A DNA stretch of 64,000 nucleotides from Sarea resinae. Lineage: Eukaryota. The notes under the pieces are model-generated. The model was given only the letters and a program-made list of their open reading frames with translations. It made no database searches and was not told the origin of the DNA. The stretch lies in contig JAPEUD010000056.1 in assembly GCA_026026165.1 (NCBI GenBank), forward strand, positions 62,001-126,000, written 5' to 3'. Made by a program: the position numbers and the translations under genes. Below are positions 26,331 to 62,253 of the stretch, in pieces (the first letter of the stretch is position 1; each line of letters begins with the position of its first letter).

Positions 26331-29290
26331 ATGAAGTTCAATATAGAGTGGGTGATGTATGATCTGGAGTCGTCACCACCGTTGTGCTGATCTTGCTCTC
26401 ACCAGCGACCTGCCCGTCCTCTTTCCATACCCTCGGATTTATCCAGGTAAGACCGATGGCGAAGTTTCACGGTATCATGCTAACACATTCAAGAGCAATA
26501 TGCGTGAGTGCTTCTATGAAAGGAACTTGTCTGCCTGTTGTATTGATCCGGTCATCATGTCTTCAGCTACATGTGCGATCTTAAGCGTAAGTTCAACCTG
26601 GCTGTGTGTCGTGTGTCGTTGCGCTGCAATCGTTAAAGCTCATGCCTTCCAGGGACGCTCGATGCGGGTGGCCACTGCGTACTGGAGATGCCTTCGGGGA
26701 CGGGCAAAACAGTCTCCCTTTTGTCTCTGATTGTGGCCTATCAGCAATACTATCCCGAACACAGGAAGCTCATCTACTGCTCCCGTGAGTACCACCGCCG
26801 AATCACATAATCAGCGCACAGCTTGGAGATCTAATAATATAGGTACCATGTCCGAAATCGAAAAGGCATTGGCGGAATTGAAAGCTTTGATGAAATATCG
26901 GACCGAGCAGTTGGGCTACGAAGAGGACTTCCGCGGATTAGGCTTGACAAGTCGAAAGAACTTATGCTTACATCCCTCTGTGAAACGAGAGAAGAGTGGC
27001 GCTGTCGTTGACGCTCGGTGTCGAAGCTTGACGGCGGGTTTCGTTATGGAAAAGAAGGAAAGAGGTGAAGATGTTGAACTGTGCATCTACCATGATGTAA
27101 GCTATGCAACCGGTAGTATAAAATTACGTTTCTAACCCTTTCAGAATCTGTACCTATTGGAGCCACATAATCTCATCCCTTCTGGCGTCTGGACACTCGA
27201 CGGCACTTTGAAGTATGGGGAGGAGCACAAGCAGTGCCCTTACTTCACAGTCCGACGAATGGTATGTTTCCCTGAACTAGACGTCAAGTCGTTTACTAAA
27301 TCAGTCAGATGCCGTTCTGTAACGTCATCATCTACTCTTACCATTATCTGCTCGATCCTAAAATCGCCGAAAGAGTATCAAAAGAGCTGTCAAAAGACTG
27401 TATCGTTGTCTTTGATGAGGCCCATAACATCGACAACGTCTGTATCGAGTCTCTTAGCATTGACCTTACCGAGGATTCTTTACGAAAAGCTACTCGAGGA
27501 GCAAACAATCTCGACCGAAAGATTACCGAGATGAAATCTTCAGATGCAGATAAATTGCAAAATGAGTATGCAAAGCTCGTCGAAGGTCTACGAGATGCTG
27601 GAGACGCTAGAGACGAAGATGCCTTCATGGCGAATCCTGGTAGGACTTTTGTCCATCTGAATGGTATAGGCACTGATGTTTCACATAGCCTTGCCCGATG
27701 ATCTGCTCAAAGAAGCAGTTCCAGGGAACATACGAAGGGCGGAGCATTTCGTCGCTTTCTTAAAGCGATTTGTTGAATATCTCAAGGCAAGCTTGACCTG
27801 CACGCCGCTGCAGAGTCTCCGCTAATGTGGTTCCTCAGACGCGAATGAAAGTGCTGCATGTCATTTCCGAAACTCCGCCCTCTTTTCTGCAGCATCTCAA
27901 AGATTTGACCTTTATCGAAAGAAAACCTTTAAGGTAAAGTCCATGAAAACGCATAGCTCACGATCCATTTCTAATCGGACTCAACATTTTAGATTTTGTG
28001 CTGAACGCTTGACTTCCTTGGTCCGCACATTAGAACTTTCTAATATCGAAGACTATCAACCTCTGCAAGAAGTGGCTACATTTGCCACGCTAGTCGCAAC
28101 CTACGACACAGGATTTCTTCTAATCCTCGAACCTTATGAATCCGAAACCGCTACTGTACCAAATCCCATCCTTCATTTCACCTGCCTTGATGCTGCGATA
28201 GCCATCAAGCCAGTCTTTGATCGTTTCAGCTCTGTCATTATCACTTCTGGTACCATCTCGCCTCTTGAAATGTATCCCAAGATGCTCGGATTCACTACAG
28301 TTGTTCAGGAGTCGTACAGTATGACACTGGCTCGTCGTTCATTCTTGCCGATGATCGTCACCAGAGGCAGTGATCAGGTCGCCATCAGCTCTGGCTTCCA
28401 GATACGTAACGAACCGAGTGTCGTCAGGAACTACGGGAACCTTTTGATGGAATTTTCCAAGATTACGCCAGATGGGGTTGTCGTCTTCTTCCCTAGCTAT
28501 CTATACATGGAATCGATCATTAGCATGTGGCAGGGAATGGTAAGGGGCCACTCTATACCTCTGAAATGTGGTGCACTAACTCTTGTAGGGCATCCTTGAC
28601 GAGGTCTGGAAGTACAAGCTCATTCTTGTCGAGACACCCGATAGTCAAGAGACGTCACTGGCACTTGAGACATATCGTACCGCTTGTTGCAATGGACGAG
28701 GCGCTATCCTCCTCTGTGTGGCCCGGGGAAAGGTTTCTGAGGGTATCGATTTCGACCATCACTATGGTCGCACTGTCATCTGTATCGGTGTGCCTTTCCA
28801 GTACACCGAAAGTCGTATTCTCAAAGCGAGGCTGGAGTTCCTAAGGGAGACGTACCGCATCCGCGAAAACGATTTCCTCTCTTTCGACGCCATGAGACAC
28901 GCAGCACAGTGCCTTGGGCGCGTGCTTCGAGGGAAAGATGACTACGGCATAATGGTACTTGCCGATAGGCGTTTTCAAAAAAAGAGGACTCAGCTCCCGA
29001 AATGGATCAATCAGGCCATGCTGGAGTCTGACACAAATTTGAGTACTGATATGGCGGTTGCCAGCGCGAAGAAATTTTTGCGGACTATGGCTCAGCCTTT
29101 TAGAGCCCAGGACCAGGAAGGCATTAGCACGTGGAGTCTCAGAGATTTGGAGAAGCACAAAGAGAAGATGGAAGAAGATAAAATCCGAGAACTTCAGAGC
29201 GGAAACACTGATGGCACGACGATAAAACGGCCGGTGGATGAATTTGGCGACGATGATGTAGAGGCAGCGATGATGGAGATGGATGGATAG
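26331..29290 (+). CDS. RAD3: TFIIH 5'-3' DNA helicase XPD (Rad3/Rad15), multi-exon
   Basis: Spliced N-terminus [49 protein letters not shown]. Also [12 protein letters not shown] (Fe-S region), [27 protein letters not shown] and [16 protein letters not shown]. Confidence 0.97.
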
Positions 29291-29733
29291 TCGGCATTTT
29301 CTTGTTGGATAGGTAGGCGTTCAGGATGGCCAGGTATTTCGGACAGGGAGTCCATCGGCGAACGACAATTCAGACGAAAAATGCTATTTCCGGATCGCTC
29401 CTTTCTCATTCGTGTCATTCACGCCCCCATCATCCACGTCAAAACATTCACTCTCTTGTTGCTCTACGACAAACGTACCAGCCACCCACATTGTAATAAT
29501 GACAACAACCCAATTGACCACCGTCTATCTCACGAGCGCATCCATTATCCTTCATCTCAATCATGAACCAGACCTGCGCCATCAATCGACCACCGATTCT
29601 CTAAGCTCATCACTTCTTTCCTTGGTCTTGCTCCACTCAAGTCCGATATCCACTCAAACCTCAAATACCACCCAAATTCGATATTCAAAATTGATACTCA
29701 TTTCATCGCATTTTTACCCCACTACGACTCACG

Positions 29734-30586
29734 ATGGAATCTGTTCAATTCAATGCCGAAATGGAGCTTGAGTACCCTCAGACCACAAGCTCTGCTTCTG
29801 CCGGTTCGTTCTGCCGCAATGGAGCTGAAGACCAAATGGGCCTCTCTCTGGCCATCGATAGTCTAATTGCGGATACGCGCATGGACGTGGAGATGTCTTA
29901 TGTTTTCGGAGGCCTCATTATGGGTGAAGCTCAACGTTGTGACATGAGTAATGTAAGCGACCACTTTCTTCTTCTAACCTGTTGGCACTTCTTTTGTGTC
30001 TTCCAAACAGATATCGAGAGACAAATGCTATCTACGTTGTCTACTTCGTATGCTAATGACAATTTAGGGGGACCCGTCCTACGAGCTAGACCAGAACCTC
30101 CGGGAGGTGTGTCTACAATTCTCACTTGTGCGTTCTTCCTCGTCTCCATTTCGTATATCTTTTCGAGTCGCTCTTTGCTCCAAAAGAGTCCTGTCATACT
30201 CTTTCAAGTTCATATTACCCGAAGACTAGAGACATAGACTAACAAAAAGTCAGATGGCAATATCACAAGTACACCACGAACGAGACGAGCATCTGAGCCT
30301 CAAGGAAAGCAATAAATTGAGGGAGTGGGTTGGCAACAAGAAAGACAAGACCGGTCGAAAGAGAACGGATGCGCCCCGAACTGAGACAAAGGCGGGCAAG
30401 ATCAAACGAAGTGCTCTACCAAAGAGTGGAATGGCAACAACGCTCCGTACACGAGTGCTCCAAGAAGGTAGTGGACGGGGACGGGGACGGATTTTGGGGG
30501 AGCAGAACAGGATCACCAAGCTCAGGCCCCAGGACTTAAATAAGGCTATCAAGGCACGAGCCATGAAGAAAGCAGGGCAAGTTTGA
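29734..30586 (+). CDS. Hypothetical 196-aa protein, paralogue A of an inverted pair (acidic N-terminal motif, Lys/Arg-rich C-terminus)
   Basis: Exons 29734-29952, 30068-30106 and 30254-30586. Phase-0 introns gtaagc..gctaatgacaatttag and gtgtgt..gactaacaaaaagtcag. Motif DQMGLSLAIDSLIADTRMDVEMS is shared with paralogue B. Confidence 0.72.
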
Positions 30587-30802
30587 GGGTGGAGCGGGTG
30601 GGGATGGTCCACTGGAGCAGAACGGAAGAGCTACTCGGTTTTTTCTTTCTTTTTTTCGTTCTTTTCTGTTTGACGGGATGGTCGGCTCGCATTTCGTATT
30701 TCCCATGGCCTGGATAGTCCTGGGATGTTGGATGGCCTGGATGGGCTTCGGATGTTGGATCTGTCTTATCTCTCCTTATCTGTATACGATGCTCCCGCCC
30801 CA

Positions 30803-30872
30803 GGAGTCGAGCTGTGGCTCGCCCTACTCCCCCCTCGGGGGTCGAGCTGTGGGTGGGCTTACTCCTCCTAGG
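30803..30872 (+). repeat. Two tandem 35-nt hairpin-capable repeats downstream of paralogue A
   Basis: GGAGTCGAGCTGTGGCTCGCCCTACTCCCCCCTCG followed by GGGGTCGAGCTGTGGGTGGGCTTACTCCTCCTAGG. Confidence 0.9.
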
Positions 30873-31447
30873 GGTGAGAGGGCATGATGGGCCGATCGAA
30901 ATTCCGCATAGTATCAGACGCGTAACACCCTCTCCGCCGGCTCCTTTATTCTGTTCTATCTATCTTGTACTACTCGTGGCATACCAAAAAACCTAGAGCA
31001 ATCAAAATCGCCCAAAAAAAAAGGTTGAAAGCATCCAAAGAGTTCATTCGCATATGCACGAGCTCATTTCGCGGAGAACTGCGTGCTTTGACCAGACCGT
31101 GAGAATATAGAAGCAAAGTGTTATTTCTTTTGCTTTGATCTATCCATCCGGTCTGTTGTCTTCTAGTCTCACATTACTCGTCTCGCTCACTCGTCGGTAG
31201 TCGAAGACCACAGCTGATGCTTGAGAGGAAGTCTTGTTTGTTTCTTGTCTCGTTTTCTACCGCAGTTCTAATACCCATTCTATGACATGTCCAGTGGCTA
31301 TGGCAACAGCCACGAAGACAACGACGACTTCACACGACTCAGGGGGGTGGGGGGCAGCTCGAGTGACGAAGGTTCACGAGAACTATGCAAACAACACCAG
31401 TTGGATATGAATTACCAGCCAACGAGTGAGCTTTCCGGCGCCACTAA

Positions 31448-31465
31448 GGCTACATGCATGTAGCC
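31448..31465. repeat. Perfect 18-bp palindrome
   Basis: GGCTACATGCATGTAGCC equals its own reverse complement. Confidence 0.95.
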
Positions 31466-31702
31466 CGTCAAACATACACGATTGACTCGGATTCTTATGC
31501 TCATACATCATCTGTGGACGGGATGTCATGATTCAGCAAGGCGTGAAAACATCAGTAACATATAAAGGCTTTTTTTCTCTTTGTTTGTGCGACTCTGGAG
31601 TCTTTTATGTCTGTAGATACAGAAGGGTAACATGTTCCGAGGAAGAGGGAGACCCCTGTGCCTTATACTGGAGACCGACTAGCGCCCAAAAGACACACCT
31701 GC

Positions 31703-31823
31703 CCGAGGAAGAGTAGGCCACCCACAGCTCAACTCCCGCAAGAGGAGTAGGGTCACCCACAGCTCAACCCCCGAGGGGGGAGTAGGGCGACCCACAACTC
31801 GACTCCGGGGGAAGGAGTAGGGT
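31703..31823 (-). repeat. Three (plus one partial) tandem 34-35-nt repeats downstream of paralogue B
   Basis: Minus strand: GGAGTCGAGTTGTGGGTCGCCCTACTCCCCCCTCG / GGGGTTGAGCTGTGGGTGACCCTACTCCTCTTGCG / GGAGTTGAGCTGTGGGTGGCCTACTCTTCCTCG. Confidence 0.9.
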
Positions 31824-32108
31824 AGGCACAGAAATGAGAGACGAAATCGTGGCAAGCCATCCAGAGGACGAGATAGCAAATGGAAAAAGAAAAGCATGAA
31901 AGATGTTTCCAACCCACAAACCTAACCTCCAGACAAGAACTTTCCCCAGGTTAATCCCCGATCATTCAATCACAGTAAAGAAACAAGATAACAAGAAAAG
32001 GACATGACAGACCCCATCGCCCGCTGTCTGTCTCTTCTCCCGTAACTTTCTCTGATCATGCCTCAGCCCAGCCTCAGACGATCACTTTTCCTCTGCAAAC
32101 AAGCCGCA

Positions 32109-32864
32109 TCACTTTCTCTTGGCCACACCATTGTTGGAACCCTTCTTGCCCGTCCCGAGGACTGGACTTGCCCTTCTCTGGGCCTTCGATCTCCTCTCGA
32201 GACGGCTATCCGTCGGAGGGCTGGAAAGAATGTCGCCCTTCTTGCTACTCTTTCGACTAGTCTTAGCATTTCTAGCTTCCGATCTAGCCTTCAGCGTCTT
32301 GGAGGGGCGACTTTCGACGCGTGATAAGTCCAGCTACCCTTCGTCAGTCTATGGCTCTCCCACTAAGGCTAGATAAGGAGCAGCAGGGCAAAGTGATCAA
32401 CGATATCGATCACTTGAGTGAATGACGAACAAGAGAAAATAAATAGCACACCTCTTCGAGCATGTGCTTCGGATGTACTTGCATGTAATACGCGAAGCAG
32501 TTGCCCTCGGGGTCGCTTGCCAATTCTTCGTAGTGTTTCAGGCCTTTGTTGCCGGCAAACTAATCGACATTAGCATCGAGTGCGGAAGGAGATGTTATAC
32601 TGTTTGAGACAGATCTCTTCTAAATATATAGGGAGAGACTAGCCCTCAAGTGGGAAGAAAAAAGGGTAAACTGACAGCTTCAGTCGCCATCGCGGTGTTT
32701 GCGCAGGCCATATCAAGGGACCCAATCAATGAACTCAGATCAACCTCCATCCGAGTATCTGCGATCAGGCTATCGATAGCCGCAGAAAGATCCATCGAAT
32801 CGCCATGGTACTCGAATGCTTGAGGGGCGCAGAATGCGTTGGAACCGTAAACGGAAGATGTCAT
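32109..32864 (-). CDS. Hypothetical 173-aa protein, paralogue B of the inverted pair (possibly C-terminally truncated)
   Basis: Exons 32864-32676, 32559-32452 and 32333-32109. Phase-0 introns gtcagt..gctaatgtcgattag and gtgtgc..gactgacgaagggtag. Motif DSMDLSAAIDSLIADTRMEVDLS, with a basic exon 3 (LDLSRVESR...GVAKRK*). Confidence 0.68.
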
Positions 32865-33628
32865 CTTCTCAATTATGATATTGAGCGAAGGGTAGGCACG
32901 AATGATTGAAGCGAGTATTTTGATGAGCTGAGAGGCAGAGAAGGACCCAGACGAAGACAATGATGAGCTTAGACTCGCAAGCCAGGCCTTGGATGAATTT
33001 CGTGATGAGCGTAGAGTGGCAGACCAAGAATGATAGAGGAAATTATGGGCTGAGAGGATCAATTCAGGTGGATTTCCAGAGGCTGGTTCGTGTTTGAAGA
33101 AGGAAAAGAAGGAGAAGAAGGAAATCAAGAAGGCGGATGATAGTTGCGCAAAGAGACGCGTGAATGAGAAGTGCGGAGTTGTGGGTGGCTGGGTGGGGCG
33201 ACAGCGGTATTCATTCACAACATTCATAGATGGAAGGGACGAGAGGATGGAGTGAATGTTTTGATGTGAATGACGTGGGCGCATGGTGGGTGTAAGTGGT
33301 ATAAACAGGGAAGGAGCGACCGCGCGAGAGAAAGGGGGAAAGCTCGAGGAGGCAAATGATGAACGAATGTGGTGAGCAGCGGCAACGGTAAACCACAGGG
33401 TGCAGCATGGCGTCGCAAAAGGACGAAGAATGTGTTGTATTTAGGATACAGCTCTTACGCCGAAGAGTGAACAATCTCTGCCTCGAGCAGATAGATAGAT
33501 AGGTCATCTTATCTTGCCTTCATATATTCAGACGCCTTAGCTATGCCGACCAAGTGTAAAGAAATAGAAAGAAGACTTCATGGAGTCACACAGACACGGA
33601 ACGATAATTACTCATTCAATCAATCAAT

Positions 33629-38927
<5,299 letters not shown>

Positions 38928-60680: not shown

Positions 60681-62253
60681 ATGGACCGTGCCCAGCTCTG
60701 GACAGCGAGAAGCTTCGCCATGGAGCTTGGTACGCTGAAGGAGCTCCCTCAGCACCCAAAGCAGCTGCTATATGTCGCTCTCATGGTGACGTTTATAGGC
60801 TGGCTGGGAGCCTATGCCTTTGGGAAGTGGAAAGGGCCAGTCTTCGGGCGTTCAAATAGCCCAGATCCGGAGAAGTCGGCGACGGCACAGAACAAGCCTG
60901 GAGGTACGAGACAACGTCGATAGAAATGCCAGCACTGGACGCTAATCATGTTGGTTCTCCCACAGCTTGGACGCCGGTAAACTTCAAGAGGCCTGCTGCG
61001 GCCCCGTACGCAAATTGGGACATTCGGACCACCAAGCCGACTCCATATCGGCCTTTCAGATATGGACCGTATGTGAATTAATACTTTCCACTTCGGCAGA
61101 TATGAATCTGGCATCCGAAGCTGATTGTTGATGCCACTACAGATACCATATCACCATGGGTGTGCGATCATTGAAATGGGATAAATGGATAGGTGCGAAG
61201 TCCCTTAAAATTGCTTCTGACTAAGTCGAGAACTAACTTTCGGAGTAGAACTGGACAATCATTATCCGAAGTTCCACGCAGACAAAGCAAGACGGCTGAA
61301 AGAGCGTGGAACCAAATGCTTTAGGACCACCCCGGAAGCTTTTGATGGTGCTGTTGAGCTACTCGAAGAGTTGTGCGTGCTTTCTTTCCGCGCAAGCTGT
61401 CTTCGCTTTCTAATGGTCCGAACAGCTGTGACTATCTCCCACAACGCTATCCCATTCTCTTTCGCAAGACTGCGGTTGGAATGGACAATCTCTGGTCCGG
61501 CGAGACCTTCAACATCGTGGAACGTCCTCTGGCCGAAGACCCCATGGCAATGGCTGCACGCATGGTCCAGGATGATCTGGCTATCATGTTCCCGAAAGCC
61601 GACGGTCAATACTACCTCTTAGCTGGTGCTATCGTGCTGGCGGGCTTTTGGCGCTTGGAAGACAAGTTGGGAATGTCTCTCGATGAGATCCACTATCATG
61701 GCGATGTTCCCGGGTACGAGGATAAGTTGAGGAAAGGCATGACGAATTTCTTCCGTCGAGTAAAGCCCGATGCGCCTGTCGAGAGGAACAACTATTTTAT
61801 CCAGGTAGACGACGATTTGGCGTGGAGTCATAGTATCGGTGACGAGGATTCAGAGGGCGCGGGCTGGTTCTCGGCGGAAAAGAACAAGGCCATCAAGCAT
61901 CATTACTTCAGAAGCGAGAGACAGAGTCTGAGAAGGTACGTCCGCAAACTTAGCAGCATTCCGGTTTCTTAATGCTGACCTGGTGACCTGGATCAAGGTT
62001 GCCTCGTTCCGGGGGTGTGGTCTTCACGATTCGCACTTATTTTCACCCCATCACCGAAATTTGTGAGGAGCCATATGTCCCGGGCCGTCTCGCGTCTGCA
62101 GTGCGCAGCTGGGGCGATGACGTGGCGAAATATAAGGGCCGGGAGAGATACCAAGATGTCCTGTTAGAATATCTGGACCGAAAGCATGAAGAGCAGTTGG
62201 CCAACGGCTTAGATATGGAGAAAGAGACGGAGGCGCATTCTTACCCATACTGA
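60681..62253 (+). CDS. DUF3445/HRQ-family protein (heme-dependent oxidative N-demethylase alpha-like) with N-terminal TM segment, multi-exon
   Basis: KPTPYRPFRYGP..ITMG..WIELD, ARMVQDDLAIM, LAGFWRLEDKLGMSLDEIHYHGDVP, RNNYFIQVDD, FRSERQSLRRLPRSG and FTIRTYF. Confidence 0.85.

Follow-up and report, generated by a model that had tools for sequence, protein, structure and literature searches.

The DNA between RAD3 and RPA190 in the fungus Sarea resinae raises the question of whether two small gene models that face each other there, termed A and B, are working paralogues, the remains of a dead duplication or chance open reading frames (ORFs) within a non-coding palindrome. The window analysed was the whole stretch of 64,000 nucleotides (nt) from position 62,001 to 126,000 of contig JAPEUD010000056.1 (GenBank assembly GCA_026026165.1), and all coordinates refer to it. 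Judged from its sequence, the intergenic region from about 29.4 to 33.3 kilobases (kb) reads most readily as a degenerate palindrome with its centre near 31.3 kb. It probably represents an old inverted duplication in which each arm carries one intact small three-exon coding gene of a family without detectable relatives. A and B are convergent, the gene order being RAD3 (+), A (+), B (-) and RPA190 (-); the features of both arms are listed in Table 1.

The gene models of A and B had been proposed from the letters of the DNA alone (the original prediction), and they were borne out when the sequence was read and each exon was translated. The likenesses in architecture described at that time were found as well: both introns are in phase 0 in either gene, the first introns are nearly equal in length (A, 115 nt; B, 116 nt), and the intron ends are similar, with atgctaatgacaatttag and atgctaatgtcgattag as well as catagactaac and catagactgac being present. 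The acceptors were all canonical and paired up between the copies, all six exons were open, and the splice signals were kept in both genes. The proposed pattern DxMxLSxAIDSLIADTRMxVxxSxxxGxLxM fitted both products, which share an N-terminal core of 31 residues. Comparison of exon 1 of A with exon 1 of B by BLASTP gave 26 identities over 55 residues (E 8e-12), and their local alignment score of 100 compared with a shuffle mean of 25.6 (standard deviation 5.3; z 14), none of 2000 shuffles reaching 100. When the 64-kb window was searched in six frames with tblastn, the sole strong matches were those of A to B (E 7e-9) and of B to A (E 5e-9), the next best having E values of 0.024 and 0.12; no third copy was present in the window. 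The remainder of the two proteins was as strongly diverged as had been stated, the last exons being without alignable similarity (z -0.7).

The likeness of the arms was not confined to the coding core. When arm A was compared by blastn with the reverse-complemented arm B, a collinear chain of similarity islands emerged from a distal upstream box to the 3' flank, i.e. from promoter through 3' flank, as expected of the inverted duplicated locus that had been predicted. This chain included the exon 1 motif (29836-29891 versus 32795-32740, 75% identity), the 3' end of intron 1, an island comprising the 3' end of intron 2 and the start of exon 3 (30228-30266 versus 32358-32321), a short piece of exon 3 encoding KTGRKR in A and KTSRKS in B, and a block in the 3' flank (30769-30873 versus 31841-31702). 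Segment pairs were also compared by global alignment with mononucleotide shuffles as reference, a procedure in which small z values are soft. The z values were 4.6 for the distal and 3.6 for the proximal 5' segment, 7.1 for exon 1, 5.2 for intron 1 (a score reached by 1 of 300 shuffles), 4.7 for intron 2, 2.3 for exon 3, 2.8 for the 3' stretch and 22.5 for a block of 35-nt repeats in the 3' flank. Exon 2 was the sole segment pair that did not rise above shuffles (z -0.4).

Over 47 aligned codons of A and B, the proportion of differing sites was 0.68 at synonymous (pS) and 0.355 at non-synonymous (pN) positions. In the 31-codon core, pS was 0.78, which is beyond the Jukes-Cantor limit, and pN was 0.24. 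Synonymous sites between A and B are near saturation. By codon position, the core differences numbered 8, 7 and 19, and those in the 11-codon invariant block AIDSLIADTRM numbered 0, 0 and 7, all seven being synonymous. Purifying selection at the protein level maintains the N-terminal core DxMxLSxAIDSLIADTRMxVxxSxxxGxLxM, and since third positions differ and the changes in the invariant block are all synonymous, the shared motif does not stem from gene conversion. All six exons also scored best in the proposed one of the six frames (0.12-0.26 bits per codon) with a codon table trained on 25 long ORFs elsewhere in the window, which themselves scored 0.17 bits per codon.

Each arm also retains three non-coding islands that had not been part of the original prediction, namely a distal promoter box, a proximal 14-mer and, in the 3' flank, a tandem repeat with units of 35 nt. 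The distal boxes of A and B were 88% identical over 32 nt (blastn E 2e-6), and the exact 15-mer TCAAAACATTCACTC occurred twice in the window, once in each distal box, with 0.16 occurrences expected. For the 14-mer CTCTAAGCTCATCA, with up to 2 mismatches allowed, five matches were found in the window versus 0.70 expected, four of the five lying upstream of A or B in sense orientation. No other DNA in the locus was as well conserved as the 3' repeat, which far surpassed the coding motif in nucleotide identity: the repeat block was 84% identical between the arms over 105 nt and 90% over 70 nt, and blastn aligned it at 83% over 101 nt (E 3e-24). Inspection of the alignment showed no codon periodicity in the differences. 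Identity between the arms exceeded that of neighbouring units within an arm (77-82%), indicating that the array existed before the duplication and has undergone little change from then on. Given the inverted arrangement of the arms, the element would have the same orientation in the mRNAs of A and B, provided that it is transcribed as part of them. The fold of the block gave z values of -2.2 and -2.3 against shuffles, with 2 of 200 and 6 of 200 shuffles being as good. A metagenome scan with a degenerate pattern for the 35-nt unit returned no match.

Table 1. Predicted features of the two arms between RAD3 and RPA190 (positions in the 64-kb window; aa, amino acids)
Feature	Position	Strand	Details and basis
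Distal upstream box of A	29422-29453	+	281-312 nt before ATG; last 15 nt TCAAAACATTCACTC; inverted pair
Proximal 14-mer CTCTAAGCTCATCA of A	29599-29612	+	One copy, 122-135 nt before ATG; motif scan
Gene A, predicted	29734-30586	+	Three exons; 73+13+110 = 196 aa
A exon 1	29734-29952	+	73 aa; carries conserved motif (encoded 29836-29891); translation; same exon in KAI9830835.1
A intron 1	29953-30067	+	115 nt, phase 0; donor GTAAGC, branch-point-like GCTAATG, acceptor TTTAG
A exon 2	30068-30106	+	13 aa; identical in KAI9830835.1
A intron 2	30107-30253	+	147 nt, phase 0; donor GTGTGT, branch GACTAAC, acceptor CAG
A exon 3	30254-30586	+	110 aa + stop, basic tail; translation; KAI9830835.1
3' flank of A, G+C-rich 35-nt tandem repeat	30769-30874	+	About 2-3 units, 183-288 nt after stop; repeat scan, blastn
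Central palindrome spacer	30875-31701		Weak residual mirror similarity (halves z 3.6); no RNA family or tRNA
3' flank of B, same 35-nt tandem repeat	31702-31841	-	3 units, 268-407 nt after stop; repeat scan, blastn
Gene B, predicted	32864-32109	-	Three exons; 63+36+74 = 173 aa
B exon 3	32109-32333	-	74 aa + stop, basic tail; translation
B intron 2	32334-32451	-	118 nt, phase 0; donor GTGTGC, branch GACTGAC, acceptor TAG
B exon 2	32452-32559	-	36 aa, 23 codons longer than A exon 2; translation, codon score
B intron 1	32560-32675	-	116 nt, phase 0; donor GTCAGT, branch GCTAATG, acceptor TTAG
B exon 1	32676-32864	-	63 aa; conserved motif encoded at 32740-32795; translation, BLASTP, codon score
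Proximal 14-mer CTCTAAGCTCATCA of B	32921-32934, 32961-32974, 33003-33016	-	Three copies about 41 nt apart; motif scan
Distal upstream box of B	33250-33281	-	386-417 nt before ATG; inverted pair with A box

Database searches changed the picture for gene A in one respect. The pair had been called unrecognised; A is, however, already annotated in S. resinae as a hypothetical protein. The public match, KAI9830835.1 ('MAG: hypothetical protein M1819_005360 [Sarea resinae]', from a metagenome-assembled genome), was 100% identical to A and had exactly the same three exons, but started at the second ATG, giving 187 instead of 196 aa. This entry is without assigned function or family, and the database search yielded no protein for B, its mirror paralogue. 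The statement that no family could be recognised held throughout, no family, fold or homologue being found in Pfam, PDB, representative proteins, ESM Atlas or metagenomes. Five exon translations searched against Pfam-A at E up to 10 gave nothing at the gathering cut-off. The only line returned, DUF7558, matched residues 27-59 of B exon 1 weakly (E 0.1; 13.4 bits versus a cut-off of 27), had no match in A and was regarded as noise. A profile of exon 1 (A and B) had no match at E up to 10 among 177635 distinct PDB sequences, and three word-indexed searches covering 5.8 billion clusters recovered A itself alone. A HMMER profile of both first exons gave three matches at E up to 0.001 among 1.84 billion representatives, one of them being A. 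The second, a 1906-aa bacterial tandem-repeat protein, was dismissed as an artefact of the profile search, in which 11 weak repeat stretches had been summed. The third, the 173-aa ENA protein P0008, encoded on a 2.3-Mb contig, contains four 27-aa tandem repeats with GDQMGLSTALDCLV, which resemble EDQMGLSLAIDSLI of gene A over 15-16 residues per repeat; judged from the sequences, this likeness is likely due to chance. Metagenome scans with peptide patterns produced 442 matching stretches, of which none was confirmed by tblastn. The predicted restriction to the lineage is in agreement with these results, as no homologue outside this genome was found in protein, profile and metagenome searches. 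Sarea is placed in a small class of its own, and thin sampling may be part of the reason why no relatives were found. The accessible parts of the literature on the S. resinae genome contained no work on this locus; the motif itself was not searched for.

The predicted products of A and B are of a common charge-split build, an acidic and partly hydrophobic N-terminal region of about 60-70 aa being followed by a strongly basic low-complexity tail. The net charge of exon 1 was -9 for A and -8 for B, the isoelectric point (pI) being 4.05 in both, and the last exon had a net charge of +18 in A (pI 11.4) and +16 in B (pI 11.8). The last exons were Lys/Arg-rich as described originally, with these residues accounting for 29 of the 110 positions of A and for 22 of the 74 positions of B. 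AlphaFold2 placed helices in A over QMGLSLAIDSLIA and the next 20 residues, at a confidence below 50. In ESM Atlas there was no usable feature match for A or B exon 1, and all structure rows had a template modelling score (TM) of 0.40 or less. What the original prediction had called an interaction helix thus corresponds to a predicted helix of low confidence (predicted local distance difference test score, pLDDT, 47), and its term nucleic-acid-binding would be a guess from the composition of the basic tail alone. A heterodimer prediction with the two exon 1 peptides gave scores of 0.00 and 0.00, with controls not run and no verdict returned; heterodimerisation of A and B is a guess.

The sequence evidence points to A and B being a real, selectively maintained, lineage-restricted inverted paralogue pair, and the locus looks like an ordinary lineage-restricted duplication. 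Several points weigh against a functional pair. In the word-indexed search, B was not found among database proteins of at least 112 aa, which implies that public annotation either missed B or has a model of it that lacks exon 1. Codon usage discriminates only weakly, since a stop-free pyrimidine-rich stretch upstream of B scores 0.135 bits per codon. Constraint in both lineages and constraint in only one are indistinguishable by the pairwise ratio of non-synonymous to synonymous divergence (dN/dS), and one copy could be drifting, given that exon 2 comprises 13 aa in A versus 36 aa in B and that the tails cannot be aligned. AlphaFold2 run on A with no alignment gave a mean pLDDT of 47.4 and a predicted template modelling score (pTM) of 0.21, the stored ESM Atlas model of A had a pLDDT of 0.50, and the functional reading draws on composition and on a class of motif. 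Some of these points would also suit the view that one copy, more likely B, or even both are decaying relics of a dead duplication, with the motif recording past constraint: no annotated protein corresponding to B was found, the second exons differ in length by 23 codons, the tails have diverged beyond alignment and pairwise pN/pS averages over both lineages. Decay is nevertheless quite improbable. The three B exons are open and score best in frame, each splice signal of B (donor, branch point and acceptor) is intact and agrees with its counterpart in A, and the upstream motifs are kept in B, where the 14-mer is even triplicated. Moreover, none of the seven differences in the invariant block changes the protein, which is hard to reconcile with long drift at a saturated synonymous distance.

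A different matter is whether the conserved 3' repeat is a functional element. Close inverted repeats are known substrates of gene conversion, and the identity of the 35-nt block, perhaps together with that of the promoter box, might be the product of recent conversion between the arms, with no functional element involved. This is a serious possibility, its chance falling somewhat short of even. It would account for a block that is 84-90% identical between arms whose synonymous sites differ by about 70-78%, and the fold of the block being only modestly better than that of shuffles (z -2.2 and -2.3) fits it as well. The adjacent coding motif, however, was left untouched, its third positions differing freely, and several separate short islands are conserved instead of one tract. 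The arms were also more alike (90% over 70 nt) than the units within an arm (77-82%), which means that the units kept their positional correspondence and were not homogenised as an array.

The least favoured explanation is that the locus is a non-coding palindrome, or a foldback element or element of the miniature inverted-repeat transposable element (MITE) type with tandem subrepeats, and that the genes are chance ORFs. Its starting point is a pair of inverted 99-nt arms built of 35-nt tandem units, 81% complementary and flanking a spacer of 860 nt, an arrangement that resembles such elements, and A and B have no protein family match. The 99-nt terminal inverted repeats would be equally well explained as part of a larger palindrome: similarity of the arms continues outward into the genes beyond them and extends collinearly over exons, introns and promoters. 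Unlike foldback and MITE-type elements, the sequence was single-copy in all data examined, and its arms appear to belong to a larger gene-bearing palindrome. No second copy of any part of the locus was present in the 64-kb window, the sequencing run that contains the locus had no further contig at least 80% alike, and no metagenome match was obtained; more diverged copies may exist elsewhere in the genome. The ORF list held no transposase-like ORF, with Pfam having been run on six pieces only, and the pattern of third-position change (0, 0, 7 in the invariant block; 8, 7, 19 in the core) is a coding signature. A mobile or non-coding origin is thus highly improbable. An artefact of assembly was considered too. 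In the run that contains the locus, which may be the source sample, two contigs covered 27500-35000 with 0 differences. Summed depth from 29006 to 34527 was flat at those two contigs' own values, so that no other contig at least 80% alike lands on the pair or on the repeats. Palindromic misassembly is excluded, as the arms are far too diverged.

If A and B form a maintained pair, their products might be small nuclear adaptor-type proteins, a role that is rather unlikely but can be sketched. The conserved acidic amphipathic segment with IDSLI would dock on a common partner, or A and B would dock on each other, and the basic disordered tail would provide nuclear targeting and unspecific affinity for nucleic acids. 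Through the upstream motifs that they share and a 3' repeat in the same sense, A and B would come under common transcriptional, and possibly post-transcriptional, control. A pattern of hydrophobic-x-x-hydrophobic-hydrophobic residues is known in the acidic amphipathic activation or docking helices of VP16, Gcn4 and p53. The core of A and B is likewise acidic, with amphipathic hydrophobic spacing and IDSLI, and the basic region following it could target the nucleus; unlike those proteins, A and B are without a DNA-binding domain, their helix is predicted at a pLDDT below 50, and the likeness is one of pattern only. The more far-reaching proposal, that A and B are new lineage-restricted charge-split nuclear regulators acting through an acidic docking helix, and that their expression is coupled by a new structured, G+C-rich 35-nt tandem-repeat element in both 3' untranslated regions, a cis-regulatory RNA or DNA element that stayed about 90% identical while neutral sites became saturated, is improbable. 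In being small, largely disordered by prediction, without outside homologues and situated side by side, A and B resemble orphan genes that expand by local inverted duplication, from which they differ in the direct protein-level constraint on the motif and in the islands kept at both gene ends. The pair would illustrate, on a small scale and cleanly, how a taxonomically restricted gene can outlast its duplication with a constrained short motif and with promoter and 3' elements kept. B is probably a missed gene that can be added to the annotation of a poorly sampled fungal lineage. The 11-residue motif and the 35-nt element offer defined handles for experiments. The highly conserved 3' repeat is the most intriguing loose end, and the locus has no bearing on a long-standing open question.

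Further observations concern the ends and the interior of the gene models. Upstream of the B ATG (32865-33290, -), 142 codons were open in frame with exon 1 and contained two ATGs. The pyrimidine fraction of this stretch was 0.66, and the conserved upstream motifs lie within it. An N-terminal extension of B through these codons was considered and the stretch judged to be a 5' leader instead, which is the probable reading as it is pyrimidine-rich and A has an in-frame stop just upstream; a longer B protein starting in it is conceivable from the sequence. In arm A, an upstream ORF of 90 codons (29499-29771, +) overlaps the start codon of A in another frame; it may be translated as an upstream ORF, or transcription may start downstream of it. 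B exon 2 and A exon 3 seemed to share a 'QVH' likeness, which was discarded since the starts of the third exons lie opposite each other when the DNA is aligned. The contigs of the run that contains the locus break at 30323-30352, inside A exon 3, with an overlap of 30 nt, which could reflect a branch of the graph, for instance at a repeated word or a sample variant. In the 3' region of A, immediately ahead of the 35-nt repeats, a 27-nt unit, ATGGCCTGGATAGTCCTGGGATGTTGG, was present twice in tandem (30705-30758, 85% identity), and no counterpart was seen in arm B. Almost at the palindrome centre lies an ATG-started ORF of 58 codons (31287-31463, +), which had no Pfam match and a codon score of 0.12 bits per codon, a value that does not discriminate. 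In the region 29000-33800, a search with the Rfam 15 covariance models gave no match at E up to 1, and ARAGORN found no tRNA or tmRNA gene.

The position of the convergent pair between RAD3 and RPA190, as originally proposed, was upheld by the Pfam and PDB matches of both neighbours. RAD3/XPD is the ORF ending at 29290, with a Pfam match to Helicase_C_2 (4e-33) and a PDB match to yeast Rad3 (E 5e-104). RPA190 is represented by ORFs from 33629 on the minus strand, whose PDB matches to the largest subunits of RNA polymerase I (Pol I; E 4e-66 and 7e-61) were well above those to Pol II and Pol III. In contigs of two runs from other organisms, which were short, only coding parts of RAD3 and RPA190 were matched. 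A direct repeat of 33 nt (73% identity) links the last RAD3 codons (29235-29267) with the region upstream of B (32990-33022) and is probably due to chance, as its orientation is at odds with the palindrome. Within RAD3, a GT..AG stretch of 49 nt (28539-28587) was missing from a contig that the same study had obtained from another organism, which fits an intron that is present here and absent in that contig.

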